Below the pieces are notes generated by a model. The model saw only the letters and a program-made list of their open reading frames with translations, made no database searches and was not told where the DNA came from. From assembly GCA_965263355.1 (NCBI GenBank), contig CBDHHL010000032.1:2560001-2624000 (forward strand): a DNA stretch of 64,000 nucleotides. The letters run 5' to 3'. Source of the DNA: Leptolyngbyaceae cyanobacterium. Lineage in GTDB: Bacteria; Cyanobacteriota; Cyanobacteriia; Phormidesmidales; Phormidesmidaceae. Position 1 is the first letter of the stretch. Each line of letters starts with the position of its first letter. A program made the translations under genes and the position numbers. Positions 39,325 through 57,068 of the stretch are shown here, one piece after another.

Positions 39325-39497
39325 AGAGTACTGTCTTTTGGATGGAGGCCCCAGATGTTGGATACTCATCAGGGGATTGTGCGGGCGATCGCATCTCAGC
39401 CTGAGTCGTTTTTTTGTTGCTGCAGAAGATGGCCTGCTTGGTCTTTGAGATAAAGGCAGTCATCTTGTCCAGAGTCTTAATGAAGCTTGTCGATTAA

Positions 39498-40976
39498 AGA
39501 ATCTATGCAAGCCGTGAGAGGCTATAGAATCCAGCTATCCCCTCTTACACTTGGAGAAACGTTATGAAGATTCTAGCGATTGACCTGGGCAAATTCAACT
39601 GTGTATCGTGTCTGCTGGACACGGAAAGTAACGCGAGTGAATTTGATACGTTTAAGACGTACCGACGGGAATTTAAAGAAATATTACATCGTACTCAACC
39701 CCACTTGGTAGTAGTGGAAACATGTTCGATTACCGGATGGGTGCATGATCTGTGTGTTGCTGAAGACTATCAAGTACTGGTGGCCGATCCGAGTCAGGAG
39801 GCGTGGCGTTGGAAAAACGTCAAACGCAAAACGGATAAAGACGATGCACTGAAGTTAGCAAAACTGGCGGCTCTCGAGCAGATCAACCCAGTGTACGTGC
39901 CTGCACCAGAGACTCGACAATATCGGCACTTGGTGAAGTATCGAAAAGTGGTGGTTTGGCGTATCAATCGGGTTCAAAATGCGATTCGTGCGTTGTTTGA
40001 TCAACACGGGGTGAAAATACCATCAGGTCACCGAGCCTGGACCATCCAGGGGATTGACGAATTAAGCCAACACCGCCGAGTGCTGGCGGAGTGCGATGAG
40101 CACAATCTATGGCGTGGGGAATTAGAGTTAGAATTAACGATGCTGGACCAACTATGGGAGCACCTGGCAACCATTGAACGGAAATTAGAAATACTCGCAA
40201 AGCAGGAGGAGCGCATCCAACTATTGCAGACCATTCCTGGGGTTGGTCGTAAAACAGCCGAAGTGATTGTCACTTGTTTGGATGATCCGAAGCGATTTGA
40301 AAATTCGCGGCAAGTGTGTGCCTATGCTGGATTAATACCCCAACAACATCAATCCGGACAAACCAATCGCTTGGGTAAGATTACTAAACGGGGACCAAGA
40401 TTACTCCGAACGGCATTAGTGGAAGTGTCCTGGCTGATGTTGCGTCACAACGAATGGGCGGCAGCTACTTATGCACGCATTAGTGGAGGACAGAAGACCC
40501 GCAAGAAAACAGCGATTGTAGCCGTTGCCCGGAAGTTGTTGGTGCGATGTTGGGCGATGTTGTTACACAACCAGCCGTGGAATCCAGAGTTAGCTCAGCC
40601 AACACCATAGATAACAAAATTTAGAAGAGAGATGGAGAGAACAAAGTGAGACTCTAGCATGAGCTTGAAGCTTCACGTAATCTGAAACAAGGTTGCCCTA
40701 ACGTTCGCGTAGCGTCTCCGTAGGAGTTATAAGCCATGCACCTTTGTAAAAACTCTTGAGACAATGCAATAGAACACACGTTCAAATAGCATTGACACCT
40801 CGGATAGTCGGTTAAATCCACTTTGCCCTCATTAATTCTCAATCAAAAAGACAGTCCTAAGAACAAAGGTAAATCATCTTGACTAACAACAAGATGAGAG
40901 ATTGATGTGGATAGAAAATGAGAGACTCTCCGAAAAAAATGCCGAAACCCACTTGACACGTTCACGGCTTCATAGT
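39498..40976 (+). mobile_element. IS110-family (IS1111-like) element, copy 1, inserted in attC
   Basis: Ends defined by identity with 48638-50093; sub-terminal IRs CTATGCAAGCCGTGA / TCACGGCTTCATAG; long 3' non-coding region; no target duplication. Confidence 0.92.
39564..40610 (+). CDS. IS110 family transposase (DEDD recombinase)
   Basis: LAIDLGK, VVET, KTDKDDA, TIPGVG, AYAGLIP..QSG, AVARKL. Confidence 0.96.
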   Translation: MKILAIDLGKFNCVSCLLDTESNASEFDTFKTYRREFKEILHRTQPHLVVVETCSITGWVHDLCVAEDYQVLVADPSQEAWRWKNVKRKTDKDDALKLAKLAALEQINPVYVPAPETRQYRHLVKYRKVVVWRINRVQNAIRALFDQHGVKIPSGHRAWTIQGIDELSQHRRVLAECDEHNLWRGELELELTMLDQLWEHLATIERKLEILAKQEERIQLLQTIPGVGRKTAEVIVTCLDDPKRFENSRQVCAYAGLIPQQHQSGQTNRLGKITKRGPRLLRTALVEVSWLMLRHNEWAAATYARISGGQKTRKKTAIVAVARKLLVRCWAMLLHNQPWNPELAQPTP

Positions 40977-41056
40977 CGTGAAGCTGAGCGGCGGCCAGGA
41001 ACTTTGGTATCATCATCTAAATTTTACCCTCCGTCTGTTCCTGCGCAGTGTTAGCT
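40977..41056 (-). other. attC-like site interrupted by IS copy 1
   Basis: Minus strand AGCTAAC..GCAGGAACAGACGG...CCGCCGCTCAGCTTCACG; the remaining TTAATC of the core is at 39497-39492. Confidence 0.85.
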
Positions 41057-41087
41057 GGTGTTCTCCACAAACCGTATCGTATTGATC

Positions 41088-41576
41088 TTAGGGCTCTTGG
41101 GCAAGGACTAAGATACGCTGATACAGCAGGGGACTGACACGAAAACCAGCTTGGTTGATCAAATCATCCATAATGGGTTGCACTTGGGGAATGAGGTTTC
41201 TTTGCTTGGCAACGAGCAAAATACCCAGAATACCGATTATGGATAGTCCAAGTTGAAGGGCTTGTTGCCGTCCCAAGCGCTCATCAATAAGCAGATCATC
41301 GGCTTGTAGCTCAAGTGCCAGCGCGATCGCACTCGCTTCTCCTGCATCCAGTCCTCGGTCTTGTTGTAATTGATTGGCAAGTTGAAGATTGCTAAGGGAT
41401 TGCGTTTGAATCCAGTCTAATTGCAGAATGCTTGAAATGGTTGGATTACTGGCGGTTGCGAGTTCGCTGGCAACAACGTCTGGAATAATTACGGTTTGGT
41501 AAATTGACTCTAGCAGCCAGAGATGATTGACAAGGGCAAGATTGCTGAGGGCAGAAGTATCGCTGACGACGATCAT
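41088..41576 (-). CDS. DUF3368 PIN-like toxin
   Basis: MIVVSDTSAL, LDAGEASAIALA, LLIDERLGR. Confidence 0.9.
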   Translation of the reverse strand: MIVVSDTSALSNLALVNHLWLLESIYQTVIIPDVVASELATASNPTISSILQLDWIQTQSLSNLQLANQLQQDRGLDAGEASAIALALELQADDLLIDERLGRQQALQLGLSIIGILGILLVAKQRNLIPQVQPIMDDLINQAGFRVSPLLYQRILVLAQEP

Positions 41577-41833
41577 AGCCAGCCCCGCTCGCGCAGGTGC
41601 TGAACATCTTGCTCAAGGTCTTCTACATCGTAGTGAACACAGATGCCCCGATCTGCCAGTAATTTCTGAAACGGGATGATTTCCATTCCAGCAATTTTGC
41701 TGGCGCGACTGAGGGAAATCAGCTCTTGTTGAAACAGTGCGATCGCAATTTCCCGAAACCAGTCGCTCTGATTAAAAGTTTCGGTTTGACTGAGATTATC
41801 AGGTAGGTTCAGAGTAATTTGCATAGGGTTCAC
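41573..41833 (-). CDS. UPF0175 family antitoxin
   Basis: EIAIALFQ..ISLSRASKIAG..F..LL..RGI..HYDVEDL. Confidence 0.9.
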   Translation of the reverse strand: MNPMQITLNLPDNLSQTETFNQSDWFREIAIALFQQELISLSRASKIAGMEIIPFQKLLADRGICVHYDVEDLEQDVQHLRERGWL

Positions 41834-41970
41834 CTGTAAATGGAAGCTCGTTGAGCCTACATTCTCAATTTTAACCTGTGCCTAACTTCAGTTGTGCCAT
41901 CGACTACATAACCCGCAGCAGGAATTATGCCAAATCTTCAAGTTATCACCTCAGCCGAATTCAAGGAGCT

Positions 41971-42052
41971 AGCTAACGAGGAACTGAGCGGCGGGCAATA
42001 CTTTTGCCTCTACCTGGACTTTAAATCCGTCCGCTCCTTCACAGAGTTAGAC
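41971..42052 (-). other. attC-like recombination site
   Basis: Minus GTCTAAC..GAAGGAGCGGACGG...CCGCCGCTCAGTTCCTC-GTTAGCT. Confidence 0.85.
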
Positions 42053-42076
42053 GGCAAGAGCGATCGCACCTCGCCT

Positions 42077-42760
42077 GTAGGTTGGGTTGAGTTAGCGAAA
42101 CCCAACAATATCAGAATATTCACCTAATCCCAATCCATCTTTTCCATCATTTTAATTTCTCCACCAGCACCCCAATCACTCGGATAATACCCCCGCTCAA
42201 CATACCCATGAAAACTTGAATACGATCAATCGCAGCACGGAGAGTCAACTAACTGGTGACTGACCGGATTATAGTGAATATAGTCAACATGTCGTGAAAA
42301 ATCTTTTTCATCGCGAATCTGATGCTCCCAAAATCGACGCTGCCAGATAGCTTGTTCTTTTTTCGTCTGGCGGCTTGATGACCGTTGTCGCTTGTAATGT
42401 GCTGGGCAATGTCAGCTGAAATACGTCTTAATCAATCGCCAACGGGTGGAAAAATCGGCATCTCCGTCGGGCAAGGTCCAGATGCAATGTAGATGGTCGG
42501 GTAGTACCACAATTGCGTCAATATTAAACGGATGACGTTGTTTGACGGTGTGGAAGGCTTCGCGCAGTAGTTGAATCGTTTGCTCAGTTTTGAAGAGGTG
42601 CTGGCGGTTGTAGGTGACTACGGTGAAGAAGTAGGTTGCACCGGGTGTGGTGGCGCGGCGGTATTGCATGGGGGTGGCCTATCGGGTGTAGGTTTAGGAT
42701 AGGCAGGATGAGGGCTAGGATAACTGTGGGTGTTGGGTTTCATGATTCAACCCAACCTAC
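42077..42760. mobile_element. REP-flanked RAYT unit, copy 1
   Basis: Inverted GTAG REPs at 42077-42107 (GTAGGTTGGGTTGAG..AACCCAACA) and 42731-42760. Confidence 0.85.
42124..42669 (-). pseudogene. REP-associated tyrosine transposase (RAYT), nonsense-disrupted
   Basis: YFFTVVT, VVLPDHLHCIW, then TGA at 42414-42412; frame resumes with WQRRFWEH..YIHYNP; a second stop later. Confidence 0.9.
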
Positions 42761-42798
42761 GGCGAGGTGCGATCGCTCTACGGCGAGGTGCGATCGCT

Positions 42799-42893
42799 CT
42801 GGTTAAACATTCCGAGGCTCACATCCCCTGAAAACTAACGGAAAGAGACAGTTGGGAGTCTCTTCGCCTCCTCTGAGCGATTTCGAGTCGCGC
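42799..42893 (-). mobile_element. 5' remnant of a group II intron
   Basis: About 95 bp similar to the intron 5' end at 56821-56916; starts GCGCGACTCGAA directly after GTTAGAC. Confidence 0.8.
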
Positions 42894-42930
42894 GTCTAAC
42901 AATATATTAGGCTTCTATTTAGTAGGTTCA

Positions 42931-43836
42931 TCATATTAAACCAAGGACACGACGCACGGCATTATCCAAATCCTCGCCTGAAGGAAGATTTACTCCAGTT
43001 ATAAATCGACGGGAGAATTCTTCTAATTCAAACTTAATTTCTCTCGAAAGAACAAGATGACGTTGTGATCCATGCTGAACTGGCTCAGATAATGAGTAAG
43101 TATGAACTGTCAAAACATCTGGTGCATTGGTATTCACAAGGGGAATATCAGTGCCAATGACATTCTCAAATTTTCTGTATACGATGTCTGGGAGTAAAAA
43201 GTACAAACCGCTTTTGACCAAAGTCGACCTTGAGTAAATCAGTCCTTTGCGTATCAACTGTGGGATTAAACGTTTATGCACATTGGCCCAGTTCATACCA
43301 TGTCCAGATTTTGGAATTAGCGTATCTGATGAGGTTAAGTTTTTGTAAGCATACCAGTTGTCACGATAGTTTCCAGTGATGTCAATGCTTTGAACTTCAA
43401 TACCTACATACTCGATAAGCTCTCCGTTATCAACTTTAGCTAATACCCAGTCCATGGATAGGCTCGTTCCCAATTTGACTTCCCTGCCTGATGTTTGCCC
43501 CAGAGCAACAATACACTCTGCGACTTCATTTCGACGAGGAATATATTCTTCATAGGTTAGAAACTCAAAGCCATCTCCAAATGCATCATGTACGACTCTT
43601 CTCAAGGAAGCATATCGACTTTCATACATTCGGTTAGGACAAATTATGCAGTCTCCATAAGGGGACGTGACGCTGCATGTTCCATAGGTAATAGTTTGAT
43701 CGTGATTTGTCTTAGTGCATGCTTTTTCAATAAATGGACATGCTCCCAACTTCCATAAACTTCGACTCACATCAGATAAATCATCTGGTGCATATCCAAA
43801 GATCTCAACAATATCTTTTCTGGGCCTTTGCACCAT
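42931..43836 (-). CDS. NotI-family restriction endonuclease
   Basis: EIFG..CPF...C.K....GTCSV....ICPNR Cys4 motif; MDWVL..GIEVQSIDITGNY; NWANVHKRLIPQL. Confidence 0.85.
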   Translation of the reverse strand: MVQRPRKDIVEIFGYAPDDLSDVSRSLWKLGACPFIEKACTKTNHDQTITYGTCSVTSPYGDCIICPNRMYESRYASLRRVVHDAFGDGFEFLTYEEYIPRRNEVAECIVALGQTSGREVKLGTSLSMDWVLAKVDNGELIEYVGIEVQSIDITGNYRDNWYAYKNLTSSDTLIPKSGHGMNWANVHKRLIPQLIRKGLIYSRSTLVKSGLYFLLPDIVYRKFENVIGTDIPLVNTNAPDVLTVHTYSLSEPVQHGSQRHLVLSREIKFELEEFSRRFITGVNLPSGEDLDNAVRRVLGLI

Positions 43837-43839
43837 TTT

Positions 43840-45003
43840 CTAGTTACCTATCATGATTTTTATGGATTCTCCAATGGCCTTTGCCATCAGTGGTGGAACC
43901 GCATTACCAACCTGTTCATACTGTTGAGTGACGCTTCCTGTGAATTTGTAGTGATCTGGAAAGGATTGGATACGAGCTGCTTCACGCACTGAAATTACTC
44001 GATCCTGTTCTGGATGGAAAAAGCTACCCCAATGTGGATCACATTTTGTTAAAACAGTTGAGCATAAGGATTCAGGGTGTAGTCTTCCGTAGCGTTTAGT
44101 GTGGTCACTACGTCGTGCCCTTTTCATCCCAGCAGGTAAGAGTTCATAGGGAATATCACGCCAGCTTCCGCCTTGTGGAATATGTTTTAATCTTTCCAAA
44201 TTTACTTTTCCTAAATTTGCACAACTATGATTCCAGACTTGATGTGAATCATGGCGTAAGTGAGCTTGATATTCATTCTGAGGAGCTTTTGCATAATCCA
44301 GAGCTTCGTTTCTACTTCCACTCTCGATAGATGGCAAATCAGAAATAGCCTCCCATACGGTTGTGTGTTGCTTTAGGGTCGAAGCAAAAAGCGGAGGAAT
44401 GTCAAAACACAACTCTTTTGCTCCTGCAAAGTTTGCAATAGCTCTAGCATTATACGTAGGCTTTGGAAATTCGATTTCTTTAGTATGTTGTCTAATACCA
44501 ATAAATATCGTCCTGAAACGCATTTGTGGCACACCATAATGTCCAGCGAACAAAATGCGATGTTTAACAACGTATCCCAATGATTGAAGCACCTTATAAA
44601 TTTGTTCAACTACTGTGCCTTTGCCAAGTTGGACAATCCCCGTAACATTTTCAATTAAGATTGCTTTAGGCTTTAAGACGGCAACTACTCGAAGAAAGTC
44701 TTTAAATAGATGATTGCGTTCATCATCAAGGCTTCTTACAGGTGCATTTACTGAAAAACCTTGACAAGGTGGCCCCCCAGCCAATAGATCCAACTCACCA
44801 ACCTTAAGATTAAGCTTTTGCTTCAAATCTAGCTCAAATACCTGACGAACATCGCTAACGATAACTTTGACACTGGGATGATTTTTTTGGTATGTCTCTG
44901 CGTACTGACCCACTATTTCATTAGCCAATATGGCTTGGAAACCAGCCATTTCCAACCCACACGATAAACCACCTGCACCAGCGAATAAATCAATAAACTT
45001 CAC
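43840..45003 (-). CDS. C5 DNA cytosine methyltransferase
   Basis: DLFAGAGG, GGPPCQGFS, IENV, GVPQ.R.R, REAARIQSFPD, QVGNAVPP. Confidence 0.97.
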   Translation of the reverse strand: MKFIDLFAGAGGLSCGLEMAGFQAILANEIVGQYAETYQKNHPSVKVIVSDVRQVFELDLKQKLNLKVGELDLLAGGPPCQGFSVNAPVRSLDDERNHLFKDFLRVVAVLKPKAILIENVTGIVQLGKGTVVEQIYKVLQSLGYVVKHRILFAGHYGVPQMRFRTIFIGIRQHTKEIEFPKPTYNARAIANFAGAKELCFDIPPLFASTLKQHTTVWEAISDLPSIESGSRNEALDYAKAPQNEYQAHLRHDSHQVWNHSCANLGKVNLERLKHIPQGGSWRDIPYELLPAGMKRARRSDHTKRYGRLHPESLCSTVLTKCDPHWGSFFHPEQDRVISVREAARIQSFPDHYKFTGSVTQQYEQVGNAVPPLMAKAIGESIKIMIGN

Positions 45004-45205
45004 GCAAATAATTTTAAAGCACCGATAGATTCTACCAAAATCAGTGAGCGATCCATTTGGCTTGAGTGAGTAAGATGAGGTCTTATGAGCCCAGTCTTGA
45101 GACAGGTTTTTAGAGCTACTGATTTAGAAGTGTCTCAAACCTCAAAAATTTGTACTCATAGCAAGATTGAAATTCATGCGGCTGGGTAACAGGGTGTTGT
45201 TGGTA

Positions 45206-45287
45206 GCCTAACTTTGAGCTGAGCGGCGGGCAATACTTTTGCCTCTACCTGGACTTTAAATCCGTCCGCTCCTTCACAGAGTTAGAC
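45206..45287 (-). other. attC-like recombination site
   Basis: Minus GTCTAAC...CCGCCGCTCAGCTCAAA-GTTAGGC; nearly identical to 41971-42052. Confidence 0.85.
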
Positions 45288-45311
45288 GGCAAGAGCGATC
45301 GCACCTCGCCT

Positions 45312-46102
45312 GTAGGTTGGGTTGAGTTAGCGAAACCCAACAATATCAGAGCGATCGCACCTCGCCTGTAGGTTGGGTTGAGTTAGCGAAACCCAACAAT
45401 ATCAGAATATTCACCTAATCCCAATCCATCTTTTCCATCATTTTAATTTCTCCACCAGCACCCCAATCACTCGGATAATACCCCCGCTCAACATACCCAT
45501 GAAAACTTGAATACGACCAATCGCACGGAGAGTCAACTAACTGGTGACTGACCGGATTATAGTGAATATAGTCAACATGTCGTGAAAAATCTTTTTCATC
45601 GCGAATCTGATGCTCCCAAAATCGACGCTGCCAGATAGCTTGTTCTTTTTTCGTCTGGCGGCTTGATGACCGTTGTCGCTTGTAATGTGCTGGGCAATGT
45701 CAGCTGAAATACGTCTTAATCAATCGCCAACGGGTGGAAAAATCGGCATCTCCGTCGGGCAAGGTCCAGATGCAATGTAGATGGTCGGGTAGTACCACAA
45801 TTGCGTCAATATTAAACGGATGACGTTGTTTGACGGTGTGGAAGGCTTCGCGCAGTAGTTGAATCGTTTGCTCAGTTTTGAAGAGGTGCTGGCGGTTGTA
45901 GGTGACTATGGTGAAGACGTAGGTTGCACCGGGTGTGGTGGCGCGGCGGTATTGCATGGGGGTGGCCTATCGGATGTAGGTTTAGGATAGGCAGGATGAG
46001 GGCTAGGATAACTGTGGGTGTTGGGTTTCATGATTCAACCCAACCTACGGCGAGGTGCGATCGCTCTGTGGGTGTTGGGTTTCATGATTCAACCCAACCT
46101 AC
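45312..46102. mobile_element. REP-flanked RAYT unit, copy 2 (REPs doubled)
   Basis: REPs at 45312-45342, 45368-45398, 46019-46048 and 46073-46102. Confidence 0.85.
45415..45957 (-). pseudogene. RAYT transposase, nonsense-disrupted
   Basis: Same TGA after KTYFS as copy 1; remainder of the frame intact. Confidence 0.9.
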
Positions 46103-46149
46103 GGCGAGGTGAGATCGCTCTCTAAAGATTGCTTAGAGTGCTCGTGTAT

Positions 46150-46173
46150 CGCCGTTGCAACACAGTGTTAGCT
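46150..46173 (-). other. half attC-like site (R''/L'' only)
   Basis: Minus AGCTAAC-actgt-GTTGCAACGGCG, like 20640-20663; right arm missing. Confidence 0.65.
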
Positions 46174-46190
46174 GGTTTGGGCAGACGCTA

Positions 46191-46721
46191 CTATGCAGCT
46201 AGCAAGCGACTCATTTGCTCTTTCAGTAATGGAGATACCGTCAAAGGCTTGTATGTTTCACCTTCGTAAGGCTGCCAAACATAGCCTGAACTAAACGCTC
46301 TAAATAAAGATGGTGAACCAAGTAACTGCCAAGTACCCTCAGATAAAACCAATCCTGGTATATTCAGGGTAGATGACTCATTTGATAATTCGTCAAACGT
46401 CCTGAATTCATCAACTTCAAGGCCGACTAAGGCATAGCGAAAGGTAGGAGCAGACTGCAAATATTGATAAAGCAGAATACCTACCTCTGTCATTAAGTAA
46501 GCTGAGTCTGGCGTTTCAATGCCGATTGTGCTTATGCCATCAGGACATATCCGACACCACCAGTTTTCATCAATGTCTTGAAAAATAGTGGGACGGCATT
46601 GAGATTGAGAACCATTTGATAGCGACCATGAAACAGCCTCAAAATGTTGAGCGAATTGAGCTGCTGTGATCTGGTCTGAGCCACATTCCGCCGATAGACT
46701 AAATACCCATGCCATCATCAA
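46191..46721 (-). CDS. hypothetical protein (candidate immunity/antitoxin)
   Basis: Overlaps the stop of the upstream ORF; acidic and aromatic composition. Confidence 0.65.
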   Translation of the reverse strand: MMMAWVFSLSAECGSDQITAAQFAQHFEAVSWSLSNGSQSQCRPTIFQDIDENWWCRICPDGISTIGIETPDSAYLMTEVGILLYQYLQSAPTFRYALVGLEVDEFRTFDELSNESSTLNIPGLVLSEGTWQLLGSPSLFRAFSSGYVWQPYEGETYKPLTVSPLLKEQMSRLLAA

Positions 46722-47163
46722 TCACCTTTTGCCAATAGTTCTGAGTTTTTGCTAATGCTGCCTCATACCGCTCTAGTAGCATTGTAACCCTTGGCATAAT
46801 GCTGACATGGGTAGCGCTGTCTTGGATGGCTTCTAAATCACCATCAATATATTTGCTGTCAATTTGCCATAAGGGATCTCGACCGGTTCCTCCGAAAGCC
46901 TTGGGTTTCCGAAAAGGTGGCAACCCCTCAATAGATAGCGATGTGGACATGCCTTTTGTAGTTCTGATAGCGACTTCCACCTGTAACCCTGAATCATCTC
47001 GTTTCGCCTCAGGATGCAAATAACCTTGAGCATCGAGCCAACCTTGCAGCATATGAGACACATCAATATCTACTCCAGGTCTAATTCCTAGAAGACGAGC
47101 GCTACGACCTAATTTTGGTTTGCCATCCGCTGCTGCCATACCTCGATAGTAAAGCCGTGCCAT
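46699..47163 (-). CDS. hypothetical protein, possible Tse2-like ADP-ribosyltransferase toxin
   Basis: YYRGM...KGMSTS...HVSIMP spacing recalls ART-fold toxins; family call is tentative. Confidence 0.55.
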   Translation of the reverse strand: MARLYYRGMAAADGKPKLGRSARLLGIRPGVDIDVSHMLQGWLDAQGYLHPEAKRDDSGLQVEVAIRTTKGMSTSLSIEGLPPFRKPKAFGGTGRDPLWQIDSKYIDGDLEAIQDSATHVSIMPRVTMLLERYEAALAKTQNYWQKVIDDGMGI

Positions 47164-47255
47164 CAGGTTATCGGAGATTCACTTCAGAGGTTATGCTAAA
47201 CCACTTGTGGCATACAAAAGGAATATATTAAGGCTTCTTGTATATCGATACTGAC

Positions 47256-47340
47256 AGCTAACGAGTAGCTGAGCGGCGGTCGGTATTTCTGTTTCAGTGC
47301 CTGGATTATAAATTCCGTCCGCTCCTGCGCAGGGTTAGCT
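47256..47340 (-). other. attC-like recombination site
   Basis: Minus AGCTAAC-cctgc-GCAGGAGCGGACGG...CCGCCGCTCAGC-tactc-GTTAGCT. Confidence 0.88.
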
Positions 47341-47347
47341 GGCTACA

Positions 47348-47695
47348 TCAAATGTAAAGAATTTGGTTTTCCATTTCATCTGCTGTAGTGCTGTCGAGAA
47401 TTGTAAGTAATCTACGCACGATTTCTGTATAGGGCCTTCTAACTGCAATGATAATTCCAGAATGAGATTTATTTGTATTAAAGTACTCTTGGGCAAGACT
47501 TTCAAAGTCAGTGCGATTGTGCGTTAAGATGGCCGCTCCAAGGCTAGTTGCAAATTCTAATTGCTCTGCATCCGATTTCCTACGCTGTCCGGCTTGTGTT
47601 GTTGTCGTTGCATTGAAACCACGAGAACGCAAAAGATTTGAAATTAGAACGTCAACGTCTTCGTCCAAATAAACGTGAATAAAAATACCACTCAT
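47348..47695 (-). CDS. DUF5615 PIN-like toxin
   Basis: YLDEDV..LRSRG..SDAEQLEFA..ILTHNRTDF..HSGII. Confidence 0.9.
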   Translation of the reverse strand: MSGIFIHVYLDEDVDVLISNLLRSRGFNATTTTQAGQRRKSDAEQLEFATSLGAAILTHNRTDFESLAQEYFNTNKSHSGIIIAVRRPYTEIVRRLLTILDSTTADEMENQILYI

Positions 47696-47699
47696 ACAG

Positions 47700-47981
47700 T
47701 CATAAGTTCCGCACTCGTGGGTCAATCAGCTCATCAGGAATACGATTTCGCTCAATGTATTCGTTGATTTCTGCTTGATGATCCAGATAATAGCTGAGTG
47801 CATCAAAAACCTGGGATAAACCGAGGTGTGGCAGTCTTTGGGGGATTTCCTCAGGTGAAACTCCAATACGCCACATTTTTACAATTGCTCTAACAGGCGT
47901 ACGAGTACCTTTAATAATAGGTTCACTGCTCAGTATTTCGTCATTTCTGACAATATGGCAGTGCTCTGTCGTTTGTACCAT
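47700..47981 (-). CDS. DUF433 antitoxin
   Basis: PIIKGTRTPV..G.SPEEI...PHL.LSQVFDALSYY. Confidence 0.92.
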   Translation of the reverse strand: MVQTTEHCHIVRNDEILSSEPIIKGTRTPVRAIVKMWRIGVSPEEIPQRLPHLGLSQVFDALSYYLDHQAEINEYIERNRIPDELIDPRVRNL

Positions 47982-48115
47982 ACTGATATTCCAGAGGGAT
48001 CAATAATATATAGAATCAGTTCTATTTTAGCTTGAAAGGAAATTTCCAAGCCGGTTCAATTTATTAGGGCTGAGTCGTTAGAAAATCATCAAAAACATAG
48101 GATAAATCGAGATGC

Positions 48116-48586
48116 TCAACTTCGAACACGCCTACGGACGGGAAGACGTGCATCCACATCAACTTCGTATGCAATGCACAATTCACGAATATTTTGACAA
48201 GCATCGATAGCCCAATTGACCCGCTCCGTAGCGTAGGTCAAACCACAACTACTAACCCCATGCACCAATCGATGTCGCAACCGAAATGCTTTCAAGAGCC
48301 CATCCCAATCTCTGACAACATCAGGTAAGCGTTGATTAACGTTTGGAAATACTTCTTCCTTCCACAGATTTTTGTAAGCTTTACATCCATGACAGCCATC
48401 TAGTTTAGCCCGAATGTCCACATTGGGAGATGTTCCAAGTGCAATAATTGAACGACGAACAGTCCACTCAAAATGGATTACTGAGAGTAATGCTGATAGT
48501 GATGGGTCTTCAGCCAACAATTTTTGAATTCGTTGCTCTCTCGCTGAGCTAGAATCTTTCACTAAAAACATTAGTTTTTCTTTCAA
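48116..48586 (-). CDS. hypothetical protein with HEPN-like RxxxxH motif
   Basis: Helical protein with FEWTVR and RHRLVHG; start probably ATG 48571. Confidence 0.6.
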   Translation of the reverse strand: MKEKLMFLVKDSSSAREQRIQKLLAEDPSLSALLSVIHFEWTVRRSIIALGTSPNVDIRAKLDGCHGCKAYKNLWKEEVFPNVNQRLPDVVRDWDGLLKAFRLRHRLVHGVSSCGLTYATERVNWAIDACQNIRELCIAYEVDVDARLPVRRRVRS

Positions 48587-48637: not shown

Positions 48638-50093
48638 AGAATCTATGCAAGCCGTGAGAGGCTATAGAATCCAGCTATCCCCTCTTATACTTGGAGAAAC
48701 GTTATGAAGATTCTAGCGATTGACCTGGGCAAAGTCAACTGTGTACGTGTCTGCTGGACACGGAAAGTAACGCGACTGAATTTGATACGTTTAAGACGTA
48801 CCGACGGGAATTTAAAGAAATATTACATCTTACTCAACCCCACTTGGTAGTAGTGGAAACATGTTCGATTACCGGATGGGTGCATGATCTGTGTGTTGCT
48901 GAAGACTATCAAGTACTGGTGGCCGATCCCAGTCAGGAGGCGTGGCGTTGGAAAAACGTCAAACGCAAAACGGATAAAGACGATGCACTGAAGTTAGCAA
49001 AACTGGCGGCTCTCGAGCAGATCAACCCAGTGTACGTGCCTGCACCAGAGACTCGACAATATCGGCACTTGGTGAAGTATCGAAAAGTGGTGGTTTGGCG
49101 TATCAATCGGGTTCAAAATGCGATTCGTGCGTTGTTTGATCAACACGGGGTGAAAATACCATCAGGTCACCGAGCCTGGACCATCCAGGGGATTGACGAA
49201 TTAAGCCAACACCGCCGAGTGCTGGCGGAGTGCGATGAGCACAATCTATGGCGTGGGGAATTAGAGTTAGAATTAACGATGCTGGACCAACTATGGGAGC
49301 ACCTGGCAACCATTGAACGGAAATTAGAAATACTCGCAAAGCAGGAGGAGCGCATCCAACTATTGCAGACCATTCCTGGGGTTGGTCGTAAAACAGCCGA
49401 AGTGATTGTCACTTGTTTGGATGATCCGAAGCGATTTGAAAATTCGCGGCAAGTGTGTGCCTATGCTGGATTAATACCCCAACAACATCAATCCGGACAA
49501 ACCAATCGCTTGGGTAAGATTACTAAACGGGGACCAAGATTACTCCGAACGGCATTAGTGGAAGTGTCCTGGCTGATGTTGCGTCACAACGAATGGGCGG
49601 CAGCTACTTATGCACGCATTAGTGGAGGACAGAAGACCCGCAAGAAAACAGCGATTGTAGCCGTTGCCCGGAAGTTGTTGGTGCGATGTTGGGCAATGTT
49701 GTTACACAACCAGCCGTGGAATCCAGAGTTAGCTCAGCCAACAACATAGATAACAATATCTAGAAGAGAGAATGAAGAGAACAAAGTGAGACTCTAGCAT
49801 GAGCTTGAAGCTCCACGTAATCTGAAACAAGGTTGCTCTAACGAATAAGCCATGCACCTTTGTAAAAACTCTTGAGACAATGCAGTAGAACACACGTTCA
49901 AATAGCATTGACACCTCGGATAGTCGGTTAAATCCACTTTGCCCTCATTAATTCTCAATCAAAAAGACAGTCCTAAGAACAAAGGTAAATCATCTTGACT
50001 AACAACAAGATGAGAGATTGATGTGGATAGAAAATGAGAGACTCTCCGAAAAAATATGCCGAAACCCACTTGACACGTTCACGGCTTCATAGT
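48638..50093 (+). mobile_element. IS110-family (IS1111-like) element, copy 2, inserted in attC
   Basis: Near-identical to 39498-40976; flanks AGCTAA^CGGGGAGCTG rebuild an attC core. Confidence 0.92.
48704..49749 (+). pseudogene. IS110 transposase, frameshifted
   Basis: 1-bp deletion near 48745 (GTGTACGTG vs GTGTATCGTG in copy 1). Confidence 0.88.
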
Positions 50094-50172
50094 CGGGGAG
50101 CTGAGCGGCGGTCAATACTTTTGCATTGACGCCTAAATGGTAAATTCCGTCCGCTCCTGCGTAGGGTTAGGC
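50094..50172 (-). other. attC-like site interrupted by IS copy 2
   Basis: Minus GCCTAAC-cctac-GCAGGAGCGGACGG...CCGCCGCTCAGCTCCCCG; TTAGCT continues at 48637-48632. Confidence 0.88.
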
Positions 50173-50549
50173 AGCAGGGCCAGGGGCATTATCCGCTGCC
50201 TTGAGGAATTAATTTATGAGCATGGTGCGGTCCTAAAAATGTATCGATAGGGCATTGGGCGTTGCAGCAGGGGCCGCACCCTACAGCTTGCTATGGGAAA
50301 CTGATTAATGGATTAAATTTTTCAATCAAACTCATAAAAACTCCTCCACATCAAGCATTGGGTGTGACCTGAATTTAATGTGGTTCAAATGATCTACAAT
50401 ATGTATACTCCTTTGAGCCTAGCTTTGAGAATAATTCGATGTCTCGGGTTGCTATTCTGAGCCCTGCCTCAAAAGTTCACATCGTTTTTCGTTTACGCTA
50501 AGAACTATATAGAGTAGGCGATCTAAGCGAAAAATGGTAGACATCATAT

Positions 50550-52343
50550 TTAGGTCACACCCCAAGCATTTTGTGTGTCTGACAACAAACTACCTGCAAC
50601 TTTTGTTGGAATAAGCGTAGGATAAAAAACCATTTGAAAGGAATTTTTGATCAGCTCAACCAGTTGCTTGTCAGCTATTGATAAATTCTTAAATTCTTTT
50701 GCAGACAGTTGCAAACCATGTGCGTGTAAGAATTCAACTAATTTATCGACTTCAAAAGTGAATTCATTTGCTAAGCTTAAATACTGAGTAAAATAAAAAC
50801 CTATCATTCCTAAGGTTATACCTCTTATTAAATCAGTTGTTGAACTATTTTTACGCTCTGCAAGGCGGGTCAATTGTTCTGATATGCTATCTAGCTTTTT
50901 CTTGATCTCAGAATTTTGCAGGGACAGTTCGATAATTCCATCCTTTAATTCATCACTTAAGCAGTATACTTCTTCAATATCCTTTTTTCTCGCTAATTCG
51001 TGATACTTTCGGTTTATTCTCATAGAGAGCAATTCGCTCGCTATATCCTCATTAACAAAGTACATAGCCTTTTCATCACGCCAATTATTGCCGTCCAATG
51101 CGTGAAATTGAATGAAATAAGGAAGATCTTTGAAAGAAATCTCAACTGGAACACAAAATGTCCATCCATTAAATGGTTCTGCCATCGGCTTATAGGCTAT
51201 TTTGTCGGTTTCAAGGCAAAGTTTCTGTGCATATTTAACCGCATGGACAGGTGACTTATTAGAAAAGCCAACATAAATATGTTCTTCAAACAATTGATTG
51301 ATCAGCTTGGCTTTATTTTCCTGTTTAACAATTAATACCTCTGCATCAATAAGTGGAGTCTCTGTTTGAAGGGCTAGGATTTCAGTAGTTAATTTTGCAA
51401 GACTCACATTATCAATAGTGACATGGGTCGCGACAGCTACGTATGAAGGAATTCTAGGTGCATTTCTTCCAAGTATTCTGTTGAAGAAGGTTATTTTAGA
51501 ATTGGTAGTGACCTTTGATAACTTTGACTCAACTATTTGCTTGACTTCTTCTTTTTCAATGTCAAGATTATTTCTATTTACTATTATTGGATTATTGTTA
51601 TTGAACTTGATATGTTTGGGTATGTCCACGTCTGAAGGGATTTCAGCCAGCCATGCCTTACCAACTCTTGCTGGAAGAGTACTAAGACACTGTTGAGATT
51701 TCTCCCATCTACTATTTAATTGTGCAATAGAATTTAAAGAAACTAAGAGTGGAATGTCAGGCCATTGTGCTAGAAGTTTACTAGCTTTAAGCGTTTTAAG
51801 TTGTTCTATAGTTTTTCCTGCTTGCTCTTTAGCCTCACTAGCCCATTTCGAATTAGCAAATGTTCTATTGATATTAATGATTTCTGAAACACCTTTTGCT
51901 CCTAGTGCAGCTATAAATCCAATAGGACCTGTAGTAAAAAGTAGTCCAGCAGCAAAGACTGCACCAGAAACATTAGCCACTATTGCTTGGTCAGCAGTAT
52001 TTTTCTGAGAATCTAGAGCTTCTACAGTAGGATGATAATTACCCAACTTTGCCACTTGCTGAGAGAGACTCCCAGATTTAAGCCTAGAACGAATGTTGCC
52101 AAACATGTTGAACTGATGTACTATAGCTCCTCCTATTAAAGCAACCCATCGCTTAGACTCACCTAATCCATTTTGAATTGTTTGAAGCGCCGTAATAAGT
52201 TGGTCAAGATCCTGGTAAGTAACAGCTTCATGTAGCCCACTTTCCTTAAGTTGTTGCAAAATGCCAACAACTTCTTTGTCCTGAAACTCTTTTATTAACA
52301 ACTGTTCAATTTTATTTGACTTAGCTACAGCCTCTAAGCTCAT
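50550..52343 (-). CDS. hypothetical protein (cassette gene; coiled coils and hydrophobic hairpin)
   Basis: 597-aa AT-rich ORF alone between two attC-like sites. Confidence 0.8.
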   Translation of the reverse strand: MSLEAVAKSNKIEQLLIKEFQDKEVVGILQQLKESGLHEAVTYQDLDQLITALQTIQNGLGESKRWVALIGGAIVHQFNMFGNIRSRLKSGSLSQQVAKLGNYHPTVEALDSQKNTADQAIVANVSGAVFAAGLLFTTGPIGFIAALGAKGVSEIININRTFANSKWASEAKEQAGKTIEQLKTLKASKLLAQWPDIPLLVSLNSIAQLNSRWEKSQQCLSTLPARVGKAWLAEIPSDVDIPKHIKFNNNNPIIVNRNNLDIEKEEVKQIVESKLSKVTTNSKITFFNRILGRNAPRIPSYVAVATHVTIDNVSLAKLTTEILALQTETPLIDAEVLIVKQENKAKLINQLFEEHIYVGFSNKSPVHAVKYAQKLCLETDKIAYKPMAEPFNGWTFCVPVEISFKDLPYFIQFHALDGNNWRDEKAMYFVNEDIASELLSMRINRKYHELARKKDIEEVYCLSDELKDGIIELSLQNSEIKKKLDSISEQLTRLAERKNSSTTDLIRGITLGMIGFYFTQYLSLANEFTFEVDKLVEFLHAHGLQLSAKEFKNLSIADKQLVELIKNSFQMVFYPTLIPTKVAGSLLSDTQNAWGVT

Positions 52344-52579
52344 TATCCCAAGATCCCCAATAAAAGAATAGAAATTGAGTAGACGGTATCCTAATCAAAT
52401 GACCAATTTTGACTTCTAAAAAGTTAAACCCTAAAGAAATAGTTCCTCTCATTTGAAGACAAACTTGTGACAGATACCTTGGAGTTCAATTCAAGTCTAA
52501 GATCGAATCCTACGAAAAATCTTTATAGAACTTAATATTTTTGTTTTAAGCTTGGAGAGATTAATACTCAAAATTGTCT

Positions 52580-52665
52580 GTCTAACGTTGCTGTTCAGCG
52601 GCTGGCAACAAAATATAACTCCTTCCAATAACTCATGTCAGTCCGCTGAAACAGACTTGTTAGGC
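52580..52665 (-). other. attC-like recombination site
   Basis: Minus GCCTAAC-aagtct-GTTTCAGCGGACTGACA...TGCCAGCCGCTGAAC-agcaac-GTTAGAC. Confidence 0.88.
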
Positions 52666-52682
52666 TAAAGTGTCGATCTAAG

Positions 52683-53789
52683 CTATGGTGCTCCTCTTCG
52701 CCCTTCGTTTCTTCCAAATTCCAAATAGTGTGCAATTGCCCCCATGTAATTATTTGCTCCATAGACATTAGCTACATCAGGATTATTTGATAAATAAAAA
52801 CGCGGATCAAACTCAGATGAGCCTTGACGCCCTTCAGACACACCGTGTCTTAACCAATGATCTACAGCTGCAGAATAGTTCGTTGAGCCAAAAGCTCGTT
52901 GCAAATCAGAATACTTACCTAAGTAATATCTGACATCAAATACAATAGAGCTTCTTCGCCCTTCAGACACACCGTGTCTTAACCAATGATCTACAGCTGC
53001 AGAATAGTTCGTTGAGCCAAAAGCTCGTTGCAAATCAGCATGCTGACCTAAATAATATCCAACATCAAATGCAGGAGAACTTCTTCGCCCTTCTCCAACA
53101 CCGTGCCTTAACCAATGATTTCTAGCAGCATCAAGATCATTTCCAAAAGCATTCCTTAGATCACCATAAGTCATGAGATAGAACTCAGGCTCAAGAACAG
53201 GTGAGCTTGAAGATTGAGATGCTGTAGATGATGGATTACCTACAACATTTCTTCCAATTCGGACATACATTTGATACGTGTTTGGAGTAGGTACACAAAT
53301 TCCAAACTCACATTCAGTTCTATTATATGTAGCTCTTCCTACTTGCATCTCTATACCTGAAATAGATAAGCCAACTCGTTTACCATCAAAAGAAGCATCC
53401 ATCGATTCCAAAAAACGAGTCAGTGTTAATACATTTGCAAGCTCGTCTGCAATATCTGGAGCCTTCCTCCTCACTTCTGCATCTAAATCTCGAAGCGCTC
53501 TACGCCCAAAGTTTGCAAGATAAACTGAAGTGAAACCACCGCTTCCACCACTAAAGTCTGCTGCCAATGCAGCAGCAAGTTTCAACATTTCTTGATGACT
53601 AAATTCTGTTGTGTAAAGAACAACATAGCCATCTTCCAAACTGCTTCTAACTTCTGGTTTATTTGTGCGATGTGCTGCATACGCTATTTGGGGGGAAGAA
53701 ATGATTCCAGCTGCAGACACACTACAAGAGACCAATACTAATGATAGAAACCTCTTAACACTTGGTTTTATACTCAAAGTTGAAAACAT
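52683..53789 (-). CDS. secreted protein with C-terminal ~41-aa tandem repeats
   Basis: Signal peptide; four units FDxxYYLxxxxDLxxAFG..HWLRHGxxEGR. Confidence 0.8.
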   Translation of the reverse strand: MFSTLSIKPSVKRFLSLVLVSCSVSAAGIISSPQIAYAAHRTNKPEVRSSLEDGYVVLYTTEFSHQEMLKLAAALAADFSGGSGGFTSVYLANFGRRALRDLDAEVRRKAPDIADELANVLTLTRFLESMDASFDGKRVGLSISGIEMQVGRATYNRTECEFGICVPTPNTYQMYVRIGRNVVGNPSSTASQSSSSPVLEPEFYLMTYGDLRNAFGNDLDAARNHWLRHGVGEGRRSSPAFDVGYYLGQHADLQRAFGSTNYSAAVDHWLRHGVSEGRRSSIVFDVRYYLGKYSDLQRAFGSTNYSAAVDHWLRHGVSEGRQGSSEFDPRFYLSNNPDVANVYGANNYMGAIAHYLEFGRNEGRRGAP

Positions 53790-53884
53790 ACAAGGCCTCC
53801 AAGATTATCAGAAAAATAAGTAGTTGACCATCGCTATCTGTTGTAAATCTAGCTAGAGGTTGCATTGGTTTTCATTGACTTGGG

Positions 53885-54466
53885 TTAAGAACCCTTTCTT
53901 TGGTAGATTCGTCTCTTCAAACGGCTAAGGGACTCTGGCTTAATCCCAAGATATGAGGCTAAATGATAATTAGAAACTCGATCAATGATTTCAGGCTCAC
54001 TGTTAAAGAGCTTACAGTAACGTTCTTCAGGGGTATCCATATAGAGAGAAGTTAATTTGTCCCGCATCTTGGAGGCAAATCCTTCAGCGTGAAGCCTCAA
54101 AAATTTCTGACCGTTTGGAATCTCTTCGATAAATTTCATCGCTCGATGATTAAACAAGAGAATCTTAGAGTTCTCGATCGCTTCACAAGAAAATTGAGAA
54201 GGCTCTTGATTTAGAAAACTCCTGTAATCACCAAAGCTTTCGTGCTCGAGATGAAAGGAAAGGGTACACTCTCGGTCATCATTAAATAGAAAAATTCTGA
54301 CACAACCTTCTAGAGTAAAGCCAATAAATTTGCAGATATCTCCTTCCTGGAACAGAAAGTCACCCTTTTTAACTTCTACACACTCTAGGAATGAATCAAA
54401 AAGTGTAGGGTCAATTTTGAATTCGGGAAAGACTTTCAGAACAAATGTATAAAATGGCTCATACAT
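53885..54466 (-). CDS. Crp/Fnr family regulator (cNMP-binding)
   Basis: KKGDFLFQEG..GCVR; PEERY..YHLASYLGIKPESLSRLK. Confidence 0.9.
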   Translation of the reverse strand: MYEPFYTFVLKVFPEFKIDPTLFDSFLECVEVKKGDFLFQEGDICKFIGFTLEGCVRIFLFNDDRECTLSFHLEHESFGDYRSFLNQEPSQFSCEAIENSKILLFNHRAMKFIEEIPNGQKFLRLHAEGFASKMRDKLTSLYMDTPEERYCKLFNSEPEIIDRVSNYHLASYLGIKPESLSRLKRRIYQRKGS

Positions 54467-54555
54467 CTATCTGCACCTCTAATTTTTTTACGTCGACTTA
54501 GCCAATATAAATCAATGAGTAATGCTGATTAATCGTCTCACTGGAAAAGTTAGCG

Positions 54556-56916
54556 GTCGGGTAAAGGGATAGGTTTTACATATAGCCTCCCCCCTCCCCT
54601 CAGAACCGTGCGTACAACTTTCACTGTACACGGCTCAAGCAACGTCGATAGCTCAGCGATGCATTTGTTGATGGCAGACTCGGTGGAGTGCCATCAGATT
54701 GGACGCATGATTCGTCCCACCTAGGTGACGTGGCTGCTTGTGATGAATGTGGATGGGCTCTCCATTGAATAGGGATTGCCCACACAATAGACATTGCCCT
54801 TGTTGCCAGCGGATAATCCGCTGAGCAGATTTGGGATAATCCCCCAGGTGCCTGGACTGTTTGCCCCGTAGAGCAAAATACCCCTGACACTCTGGGTCAT
54901 CTGGGCTAGCCTGCCCTCGAATGAGGACATGCCGTCGAATCCGGGTAGAGCCGATGCGATAAAGCACCATGCCTGTATTGGGGTCGATAAAACACCATCG
55001 GCACCCTGGATAAGCGGGATGCTCTCCCCAGTATCGTCCCTTTCGCCACGTATAGGACTTGTTGGGATGGGTTTTCGTTGCCCAGCGTTGGAGTTTCCAG
55101 AAGAGATAAGTTTCTAGTTTCTGGAAAACCTTTGAGCTGACCACGCCTCGATAGTAATTGGCCCATCCCCGCAAGATGGGGTTGAGCACCGTGATTACTG
55201 CCGTTGCATTACAGCCATGAAGCCGCTTAAACGTGTGCCGTAGTTTCTCACGAAATCTAGCCACACTTTGCTTGGCAGGTCTGATCAGCAGCTTCCACCC
55301 CGTCTGGGTGTTGCGGCTTGGGTAGTGACGAACCATGAACCCCAGAAAATCAAATCCTTCCGATAGATGCACCACCTGAGTTTTCTCATCAGATAGCTGC
55401 AGTCCTCTCAAGCTGAGGAAACGTTGAAGGTCGATTCGGGTTTGGTCTGCTTCTGCTTTGCTCTCACAAAAGACAACAAAGTCATCGGCATATCGCACCA
55501 CTGCCCGTGTTACATTCTTTTTGATATAGCCTTGGGCATATCGAGTAATGCCCAGTGCCGCTTCCATGCCATGTAGTGCAATATTCGCTAACAGCGGTGA
55601 GATGACACCACCTTGGGGCGTGCCAGCATCAGTCGAATGAAAGACGCCATCTTCTAGGTAGCCTGCCCTGAGCCAGTCGGCAATTAATCCACGAGCGGGA
55701 AAGTTACCAATCTGGCGGAGTAGGAACCGATGATTGATGGCGTCAAAACATCCAGCAATATCGGCATCGACCACCCACTTTTTGCGATTCTTTGCATGAG
55801 CATTGACATAGATACGAGCAATGGCATCATGGGCGCTGCGACCGGGTCTAAACCCATAACTGGTTGGCTCAAATTGAGCTTCCCAGCACGGTTCTAACGC
55901 CGCTTTGACCATCGCTTGTAAACATCGGTCCGTAATCGTGGGAATTCCCAAAGGACGACGTTTACCATTACTCTTCGGAATGTACACCCGTCTGACTGCC
56001 AAGGGTTTCCAAGGAATCGTTTGCTTCAGCTGATCCACTAGGGCTGCTTTAGCGGGGCCTGTTTTCACAAGCACCTTATCGATTCCTGGAGTGGCCTTGC
56101 CAGCGTTCAGTTGAGTCACCCGTCGTACCGCTAGCAGTACATTTGAGTAACTCTTGAGTAGTAATCGTTGGAGATTCCTGACTCGCTTCCAATCATGCTG
56201 TCGCGTCGCTCGGAAGATGCGTTGTCTCAGATTCTTCACCACTCGATGGGCTTTGCGCCAGTTGGCATCCTGCCAATCGGTGATGCGCTGGGTTACGTTT
56301 GCAACACAAGTCTGCACCTAACTTTTTCCTCAGCGTTTAGTCTCGTCTCAACGTCTCTTACTGGACCTCACCTGTCCCACGTCTGCGCCCTTTCGGGTTA
56401 GGCATTTGCCCTATCCGTCACGTTATGAATTCCGTTTGCCTTTCGGCGGACGGCTTTCGCGTCTTGGGACATCCTGTTCCCGCTAGAGACTTCGGCTTCC
56501 GTTACCGTCGGCTTACCTGAAAATGAAAATTCCCAGGACTCTATCGGGGTTTCCTCGTTCCGCACGGGGAGGAGATATGATTGCCTTAGGACTCCTCTGT
56601 ACTCCGGGAGCGGGGTGTTCTCAGTTGGTATTTAGACGCTACCAACTCCCATCTGCTCCAAAATTCTCGTATCAGCCATTTCGAGAACTCTAAATTAACG
56701 AAGCCTCATCAAGGATTCACTTGCGTTATCCTTAGCAATCTTGCCCTAGCCTGCACCCTCTTGTTGGCTCAGAAGATGCTTCGACAGTTAACCTCGTCTG
56801 CTGATGCTGCCCTCCCATTACTGGTTGAACATTCCGAGGCGGACATCCGCCTGAACACTGGCGGGGAGAGACGTTTGGGAGTCTCTCCAACTCCCCCGAA
56901 CGACTTCGAGTCGCGC
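54556..56916 (-). mobile_element. group II intron (chloroplast-like class, IIB-type), full length
   Basis: 5' GCGCGACTCG; domain V GAGCCGTGTACAGTGAAAGTTGTACGCACGGTTC (54636-54603); domain VI ending ACCCGAC. Confidence 0.93.
54653..56317 (-). CDS. ltrA: group II intron reverse transcriptase/maturase with HNH endonuclease
   Basis: RVT_N-type N-terminus (LQRLL..AVRRVT.LNAGK.TPGID), RPLGIP, GTPQGG, RYADDF, RGWANYY, C-terminal CxxC and HNH. Confidence 0.96.
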   Translation of the reverse strand: MQTCVANVTQRITDWQDANWRKAHRVVKNLRQRIFRATRQHDWKRVRNLQRLLLKSYSNVLLAVRRVTQLNAGKATPGIDKVLVKTGPAKAALVDQLKQTIPWKPLAVRRVYIPKSNGKRRPLGIPTITDRCLQAMVKAALEPCWEAQFEPTSYGFRPGRSAHDAIARIYVNAHAKNRKKWVVDADIAGCFDAINHRFLLRQIGNFPARGLIADWLRAGYLEDGVFHSTDAGTPQGGVISPLLANIALHGMEAALGITRYAQGYIKKNVTRAVVRYADDFVVFCESKAEADQTRIDLQRFLSLRGLQLSDEKTQVVHLSEGFDFLGFMVRHYPSRNTQTGWKLLIRPAKQSVARFREKLRHTFKRLHGCNATAVITVLNPILRGWANYYRGVVSSKVFQKLETYLFWKLQRWATKTHPNKSYTWRKGRYWGEHPAYPGCRWCFIDPNTGMVLYRIGSTRIRRHVLIRGQASPDDPECQGYFALRGKQSRHLGDYPKSAQRIIRWQQGQCLLCGQSLFNGEPIHIHHKQPRHLGGTNHASNLMALHRVCHQQMHR

Positions 56917-57068
56917 GCTAACTATGAGTTATCCAGACTTAGTCTGGATAAATACCTTCCAGCCGGAGTTATCCAGAAACTTTCTGGATAAACACCTTAT
57001 AAGCAATTAACCCAGAAACTTTCTGGATAATACCCCCAGAGTCGGAGTTATCCAGAAAGCTTTAACCT
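56917..57068 (-). other. array-head element with attI-like simple site (copy 2)
   Basis: Palindromes starting near 56928, 56968, 57007 and 57047; minus strand ends GGATAAC-tcata-GTTAGC followed by the intron. Confidence 0.6.

Follow-up and report, generated by a model that had tools for sequence, protein, structure and literature searches.

A 64,000-nucleotide stretch from a Leptolyngbyaceae cyanobacterium (GenBank assembly GCA_965263355.1, contig CBDHHL010000032.1, positions 2,560,001 to 2,624,000; hereafter the window) revealed a minus-strand integron cassette array headed by an attI site, with no integrase gene (intI) beside it. A group IIB intron lies directly behind the attI core and two insertion sequences (IS) of the IS1111 type sit at the crossover points of attC sites. 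The arrangement is best explained, with a probability of roughly 70%, as a satellite integron platform served by an integrase in trans, on which an attI-homing intron and an attC-crossover IS live as parasites; all of the mechanism rests on sequence comparison. The array itself is ordinary, and the new part is the retained attI with cassette turnover, together with the attI-homing intron. An earlier note on this DNA, made from the letters alone, had described the cassettes correctly and had missed the attI, the group II intron and a stub of a second one, both IS and a second array. Coordinates of all features are collected in Table 1; genomes and loci used for comparison carry G and L numbers. 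The window has a cyanobacterial signature (31 HIP1 sites), and its hemB is 88–90% identical to those of six genomes of the order containing G003.

An array of attC sites headed by attI

The attC sites were scored with a purpose-built covariance model (R1) rather than that of IntegronFinder. R1 comprises a core stem, an L stem and two extrahelical bases and was made from nine sites, all from other genomes to avoid circularity (13 were aligned and the four that aligned poorly dropped); the whole 64 kb was scanned with filters off. In its alignment 93% of cells were paired and six of 15 pairs varied on both sides, a lenient control for covariation because the structure was set on the same alignment. 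The six imperfect palindromes that the earlier note had read as attC sites were all present on the minus strand where it had placed them, and R1 recovered each of them (E from 2e-15 to 0.03); sites 50094–50172 and 40977–41056, both cut by an IS at R', scored weakly. Two further sites were found in the second array, and the remaining six of the 14 matches comprised two palindromic sites read on the opposite strand (E 0.074 and 1.9) and four matches at E 1.9–4.8. Bottom-strand folding gave z-scores of −3.6, −2.5, −2.5 and −1.7 for the intact sites and −0.6 and 0.1 for the IS-cut sites; the evidence from folding alone is modest. Rfam gave no match to the attC sites, and a strict core-plus-L-box heuristic recovered only one of the six. 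A half site had also been claimed, and its R'' and L'' are indeed present at 46150–46174, with no R1 match.

The array thus contains more than two attC sites with R''-L''…L'-R' order, a paired bottom strand and extrahelical bases, and its cassettes are mobile units with boundaries at G^TT. Exactly complementary cassette ends, as previously reported, were confirmed for GTTAGAC/GTCTAAC and GTTAGCT/AGCTAAC, and a 10-bp match was found for the cassette carrying the HEPN-like and toxin-antitoxin (TA) genes. The first cassette is a single unit that extends from attI to 52587. The segment 54490–54555, considered as a degenerate attC of an intron-only cassette, had no R1 match and a fold z-score of 0.96 and was rejected.

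Over 179 nt the attI site shares 87% identity with the block that separates a full-length intI from its array in G037 (contig C6). When six sites of this kind were aligned, the identity ended directly after GTTA, which is the expected crossover. The array is therefore headed by an attI homologous to an intI-adjacent site, with no intI beside it: a tblastn search of the window with integrase proteins of relatives gave no match at E 10 or 1e-4, in agreement with the absence of an integrase noted earlier, and the same proteins revealed no hidden intI pseudogene upstream of attI, a possibility that was rejected. A small gene for an 88-residue hypothetical protein, to which searches of family libraries and an atlas assigned no family, lies on the far side of attI. 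This gene is found downstream of intI at six loci (L207, L219, L224, L225, L253, and L258) and behind attI alone at five (the window, L241, L248, L261, and L265), indicating that an ancestral platform had lost its intI. A scan for a Pc promoter gave two weak minus-strand consensus matches (9/12). A palindrome of the type AGTTC-N4-GAACT occurs immediately upstream of the attI block at 57076–57089 (one mismatch) and at ~1215–1230 of L255, and presumably resembles a LexA-type box. In the second attI, the ~100-bp insert (18675–18775, plus strand) is flanked by two copies of GCTTATAGGG.

An intron lineage that probably reads the integron core

The intron has domains V and VI, a GYGCG start, an AC end and an open reading frame (ORF) of the reverse transcriptase-X-endonuclease (RT-X-En) type with a YADD motif, all consistent with the IIB/chloroplast-like class; the RT may be like those of chloroplast-like group 2 (CL2). 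Its closest relative of known structure is 6me0_C (416 bits). Close relatives of the intron are 66–94% identical, and 16 RTs of this lineage formed one clade among 80 with a support of 1.0, in a tree that sampled every second outgroup protein and full-length sequences only. Among 28 complete copies of the lineage, 11 are ~2360 nt long and 14 are ORF-less forms of 765–790 nt.

The exon-binding site EBS1 could be clearly assigned by complementarity: GUCUAA ranked first among all 6-mers of the first 420 nt when paired against exon positions −6 to −1 (5.07/6). The assignment of EBS2 is tentative, the candidate being unpaired in the consensus fold and partly paired in the single-sequence fold, and EBS3 was not located in the intron.

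Insertion targets were compared at 60 distinct 5' junctions, each flanked by 20 nt or more. GTT was found at −7 to −5 in 51 of them, against a background of 1.6%, and the most frequent junction 7-mers were GTTAGAC, GTTAGCC and GTTAGGC. In the outgroup (142 loci examined), GTT occurred at seven of 89 likely 5' ends, all seven from one GTTTTGG lineage. These counts, in which phylogenetically non-independent junctions, like genomes below, are treated as units, establish statistically an apparent targeting of the integron core by the lineage. Thirty-nine junctions follow an AT-rich L-box-spacer (attI-type), 12 follow an attC and nine are of other kinds; intI or its N-terminal remnant lies divergently within 900 nt at 11 of 59.

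A doubtful alternative is that any G-TTAGRY core can serve the intron as a homing target, in attC and attI equally, or that it recognizes a DNA hairpin in the manner of the group IIC-attC introns, with the excess at attI produced by expression or selection. EBS1 pairs similarly with both classes (5.24 versus 4.88, p 0.14), one-fifth of the junctions do follow an attC, and one IIB intron has been reported right after an attC's top strand (PMC7923331, in the part of that report available). Sites of the attC kind should nevertheless be more numerous than attI sites, and only 12 of 60 junctions are of the attC type. Moreover, the candidate EBS2 fits the AT-rich spacers of attI-type flanks better (3.95 versus 2.33, p 8e-5), although this contrast is partly circular because the attI-type class (39/60) is defined by exclusion. 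For the hairpin variant, attI sites gave no attC-like hairpin on folding.

Lineage matches, many of them partial, were found in 43 of the 172 genomes of the order and in seven of 401 genomes sampled across the phylum. The intron was commoner in genomes with intI (18/75) than in those without (8/97; p 0.005). At L086:128 two lineage introns stand in tandem, the second beginning right after the 3' end of the first, which fits re-insertion at the same core.

Cassette turnover at attI sites without intI

The same intI-less attI is found upstream of Uma2-fur-hemB in G053, G042 and G051, the last two being drafts and the G051 contig stopping ~140 bp past attI. The arrays at this shared site measure 17.5 kb in the window, ~7 kb in G053, ~1.6 kb in G042 and ~0.6 kb in G051. 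They have attI and the Uma2-side boundary in common, and the only cassette DNA of at least 120 nt that they share is one 228-nt non-coding piece. In the window, L241, L248, L265 and L316 the first cassettes diverge from G^TT onward while attI is 85–94% identical. The earlier note had held that a gene order fixed across strains would speak against its reading, and the order is not fixed: three relatives carry other cassettes at the same attI. These differences suggest that cassette capture at the window attI probably continues in trans. A cassette for an ADP-ribosyltransferase (ART) also recurs in G054 (L281), where its boundaries are the same and its neighbors are different.

Service by an integrase in trans appears to be supported indirectly by the distribution of integrase genes, called at the TIGR02249 cut-off. 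All six closest relatives by hemB encode an intI over this cut-off elsewhere in the genome (one with two stops); 65 of the 172 genomes of the order have a match of this kind. Three near-complete genomes, with 150 candidates scored in each, have at least 25, 25 and 37 widely scattered attC sites versus 1, 1 and 3 intI matches; in near-complete G054, at least 25 attC matches lie at ~17 separate places (counted by eye), with one intI over the cut-off.

Several observations, in addition to the partial circularity noted above, weigh against a satellite platform with an attI-homing intron. Candidates for the trans integrase come from the genomes of relatives, the window itself having none. G042 and G051 share the platform, yet these drafts had no intI match at E ≤ 1e-40; the same screen found none in G108, which carries intron copies on a 5.5-Mb contig. 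The window array is decaying, with two attC sites cut by IS, one broken and one reduced to 19 bp, and with both transposase genes associated with repetitive extragenic palindromes (RAYT/REP units) dead. Nine of the 60 lineage junctions have no GTT at −7. The 5' exon of the window intron, GTTAGC, lacks one base of the usual core, and its pairing with EBS1 scores only 2.5/6; this copy may therefore splice badly. Some contigs from sequencing runs have one extra base at 56917, which restores the usual 7-bp core; these may derive from other intron copies. Contigs from four such runs (three samples at most, of which one may be the source) contained no junction indicative of cassette excision or of an allele lacking the intron, and their joints are best read as other att sites. 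That G108 contig (L212, L214, and L216) also has attC matches, and the G108 genome gave no intI above the cut-off.

The broken parts and the lack of an intI match in G042 and G051 are what would be expected if the array were a dead cluster of attC sites without integron-integrases (CALIN), a frozen relic in which strains differ through cassette loss and homologous replacement by transformation; loss of intI is listed as a route to CALINs in the part of the source consulted (PMC4889954). This explanation is improbable. Loss from a single ancestral array should leave common cassettes and none were found; the first cassettes at five loci change abruptly at G^TT beside a conserved attI, and one transposase and the intron have kept intact ORFs. 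Insertion of the cassettes by IntI at secondary genome sites, a known source of CALINs in the available parts of two reports (PMC4889954; 10.1101/2022.09.11.507474), with the upstream repeats an unrelated array of binding sites, is very improbable and largely refuted by the 150-bp repeat block, which matches the intI-array block of G037 at 87% identity and ends at the crossover.

IS1111-type elements at attC crossovers

Elements A and B are both antisense to the array and inserted at G^TT of an attC. By the rules of the IS1111 family (PMC11187229, as far as that text was available), they have a DEDD transposase, a downstream non-coding region and, by eye, subterminal inverted repeats with 7/3-bp extensions. 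Among relatives, all 11 right ends are followed by TTA, and 12 of 13 left ends have, as judged by eye, an attC-like arm in front of them, five with R1 matches at E 5e-7 to 0.7. Two segments of the non-coding region match the two target strands in the order expected of a seekRNA, again by eye. G036 alone carries seven or more full copies of this attC-crossover IS (L280, L285, L290, L295, L300, L304, and L308).

Proposed mechanism

In the satellite platform proposed here, an ancestral unit of cassettes, attI, divergent intI and the small gene would have lost intI and kept attI. IntI from another locus would insert circular cassettes at attI, with crossover at G^TT, and excise them at folded attC bottom strands, turning the array over; the architecture for this is present and the trans activity is presumed. 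Two parasites would exploit the integron core. Pairing of EBS1 GUCUAA with TTAGAC would direct the intron to reverse-splice, by the established chemistry of group II introns, into the top strand just past the 7-bp core, mostly at attI. Insertion there would spare the crossover and the upstream boxes and put the intron, oriented with transcription, into the first cassette's 5' leader, so that it would ride with that cassette while each incoming cassette offered a fresh target. Copies behind attC may be older attI insertions displaced down the array, and the full-length intron may supply RT/maturase to the ORF-less derivatives. The IS1111-type element, putatively guided by RNA of its downstream non-coding region, would insert in antisense orientation at the G^TT of an attC, where it splits R' and would probably freeze the junction.

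A broader version of this model, held with confidence just past even, is a distributed integron in these filamentous cyanobacteria, with many intI-less attI platforms across the chromosome that depend on a single integrase gene or a few of them. A dedicated IIB lineage, with its ORF-less mini-introns, would have evolved an EBS1/EBS2 pair that reads the attI core, a self-renewing safe harbor, and would travel in cassettes.

Relation to known systems

Statements about published systems refer to the available portions of the sources cited. CALINs, cyanobacterial integrons and IS within arrays are already known (PMC4889954, PMC9024848), and half of CALINs sit in genomes that encode IntI elsewhere (PMC4889954). 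The window resembles a CALIN (Cury et al. 2016, PMC4889954) in having two or more attC sites and no neighboring intI, IS being common in such arrays. It differs in keeping a full attI, in having two such arrays within 64 kb and in complete cassette turnover at an intI-less locus, and retention of attI makes it more than a plain CALIN. Sites of this attI type are not sought by IntegronFinder, and the window provides an attI sequence in a phylum for which that program has none. CALINs are usually seen as decaying leftovers; cassette uptake at an intI-less attI, if true, would make some of them live satellites.

Class C introns that target attC are known (PMC4424553, PMC8876359, PMC3001079). Like the window lineage, the group IIC-attC introns (S.ma.I2 type) are a monophyletic lineage that targets integron recombination sites; they are class C, have no En domain and insert at R'' in the attC bottom strand, opposite to the cassettes (PMC3001079, PMC4424553). 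The window intron, in contrast, is IIB/chloroplast-like with an HNH domain and lies on the top strand just behind the R core, in cassette direction, mostly at attI; it has no bottom-strand R'' insertion. UHB.I2 and H.ha.F1/F2 are single cases of IIB introns within arrays of integrons (Sonbol and Siam 2021, PMC7923331). UHB.I2, which lies right after an attC, shares with the window intron its class and the cassette orientation, and differs in being CL1, lacking En, starting with UUGCG and having another N-terminal sequence; its homologues have poor exon conservation, with no attI targeting found in the available text (PMC7923331). A literature search with little coverage of subscription papers found no report of a IIB lineage reading the integron core or preferring attI, nor of multiple or live intI-less attI platforms in cyanobacteria. 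A top-strand, core-pairing lineage, if true, would be a second independent route of group II introns into integrons, and intron copies that mark former attI positions would allow cassette order to be dated.

The known IS1111-attC group (ISKpn4, ISPst6, and ISPa21; PMC11187229, PMC3001079) shares antisense orientation and a fixed attC position with the window elements, and its downstream guide segments have putative counterparts there. Its members insert near the 5' end of attC (PMC3001079), and the position of the window IS, which lie at the 3' end in the R' crossover, is therefore different.

The junction at 42894–42912 resembles those of delta-attI-type cassettes, in which short core-spacer-core junctions replace attC (PMC12901181). 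Its left half matches the cassette's own R'', and it may therefore be a shortened attC rather than an attI remnant. Short junctions of the form R''-(0, 5 or 6 nt)-GT(T) recur here, at ~19956–19975, in L281 after the ART cassette and in L174 after the DUF3368 cassette; they may reflect insertion at L'' or attC deletion.

Cargo and the second array

Table 1. Features of the window (positions of the 64,000-nt stretch)
Feature	Position	Strand	Remarks
88-aa cyanobacterial hypothetical gene	57492–57758	+	~430 bp from attI, no intI between
attI	56917–57068	-	repeated TTATCCAGA/TCTGGATAA boxes; L box GGATAAC (56934–56928), 5-nt spacer, core G^TTAGC (56922–56917)
Group IIB intron, full length, 2361 nt	54556–56916	-	GCGCG…CCCGAC; directly after attI core; ends from relatives
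Candidate EBS2 (AAUUUA)	56690–56696	-	complementary to TAAATT at −13 to −8 of attI-type targets
EBS1 (GUCUAA)	56632–56637	-	complementary to TTAGAC; terminal loop of stem with compensatory changes
RT/maturase/HNH ORF, 554 aa, intact	54653–56317	-	Pfam RVT_N, RVT_1, GIIM, HNH; TIGR04416 over cut-off
Intron 3' region	54556–54638	-	Rfam RF00029 match
Crp/cNMP-binding protein	53885–54466	-	cassette 1
368-aa repeat protein	52683–53789	-	cassette 1
attC	52580–52665	-	R1 E 2.4e-15
597-aa ORF	50550–52343	-	cassette 2; no Pfam/NCBIfam match; atlas best 0.78, no family named
attC split at G^TT by IS	50094–50172	-	R1 match 50087–50172, E 0.0088
IS1111-type element A	48638–50093	+	at attC crossover; transposase frameshifted near start
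Cassette 3: HEPN-like ORF (48116–48586), DUF433 + DUF5615 TA pair	47348–48586	-	ends complementary over 10 bp
attC	47256–47340	-	R1 E 3.7e-7
Cassette 4: Tse2-like ART ORF (PF18648), 176-aa partner	46191–47163	-	
Broken attC, R'' and L'' only	46150–46174	-	resembles start of intact 20640–20723; no R1 match
RAYT/REP unit 1	45292–46121	-	NF047646; in-frame stop; HIP1-containing inverted ends
attC	45206–45287	-	R1 E 2.7e-6
Type II restriction-modification (R-M) cassette: C5 methyltransferase, NotI-like endonuclease	42931–45003	-	PF00145, PF12183; PADLOC MTase_II, REase_II
Short junction R''-5 nt-GTTAGAC in place of full attC	42894–42912	-	no R1 match
5' stub of sister intron, 95 nt	42799–42893	-	begins right after GTTAGAC; 81% identical to full intron 5' end
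RAYT/REP unit 2	42057–42801	-	near copy of unit 1; two stops
attC	41971–42052	-	near copy of 45206–45287; R1 E 7.1e-6
UPF0175 + DUF3368 TA-like pair	41088–41833	-	PADLOC PDC-S70; also in G053 with other neighbors
attC split at G^TT by IS	40977–41056	-	R1 match 40974–41055, E 0.029
IS1111-type element B	39498–40976	+	intact 348-aa DEDD transposase 39564–40610; NF033542 over cut-off
Second attI, same type	18612–18864	+	~100-bp insert; no intI, no intron
Second array: DUF6236, PIN TA pair, attC, 7.8-kb multi-gene unit, attC	18865–28566, possibly to ~31690	+	
Two attC of second array	20640–20723, 28484–28566	+ (cassette strand)	R1

The cargo that had been proposed, two PIN TA pairs, a NotI-type R-M system, HEPN-like and ART-like ORFs and RAYT units, was borne out in the main, with the qualifications that the RAYT genes carry in-frame stops and that the HEPN-like call rests on an RxxxxH motif and one homologue labeled RiboL-PSP-HEPN. 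The array had further been called a defense platform. The type II R-M system, the PDC-S70-like TA pair and the HEPN-like ORF agree with this, whereas the arrays of relatives at this locus (read by eye from N-terminal sequences) and the second array of the window hold mostly regulators and enzymes; defense is one use of the array and not its defining one.

The 368-residue ORF of the first cassette contains two 129-nt tandem repeats (52776–53033) and has no Pfam match. The two RAYT units, with GTAG-headed REP hairpins and the same in-frame stop in both, were duplicated along with the attC that follows. The 7.8-kb unit between the two attC sites of the second array, an unusual size for a cassette, encodes TetR, two MpaB/Lcp-like oxygenases, ABM, SDR, DUF3237, flavin amine oxidase and TMEM175-like proteins.

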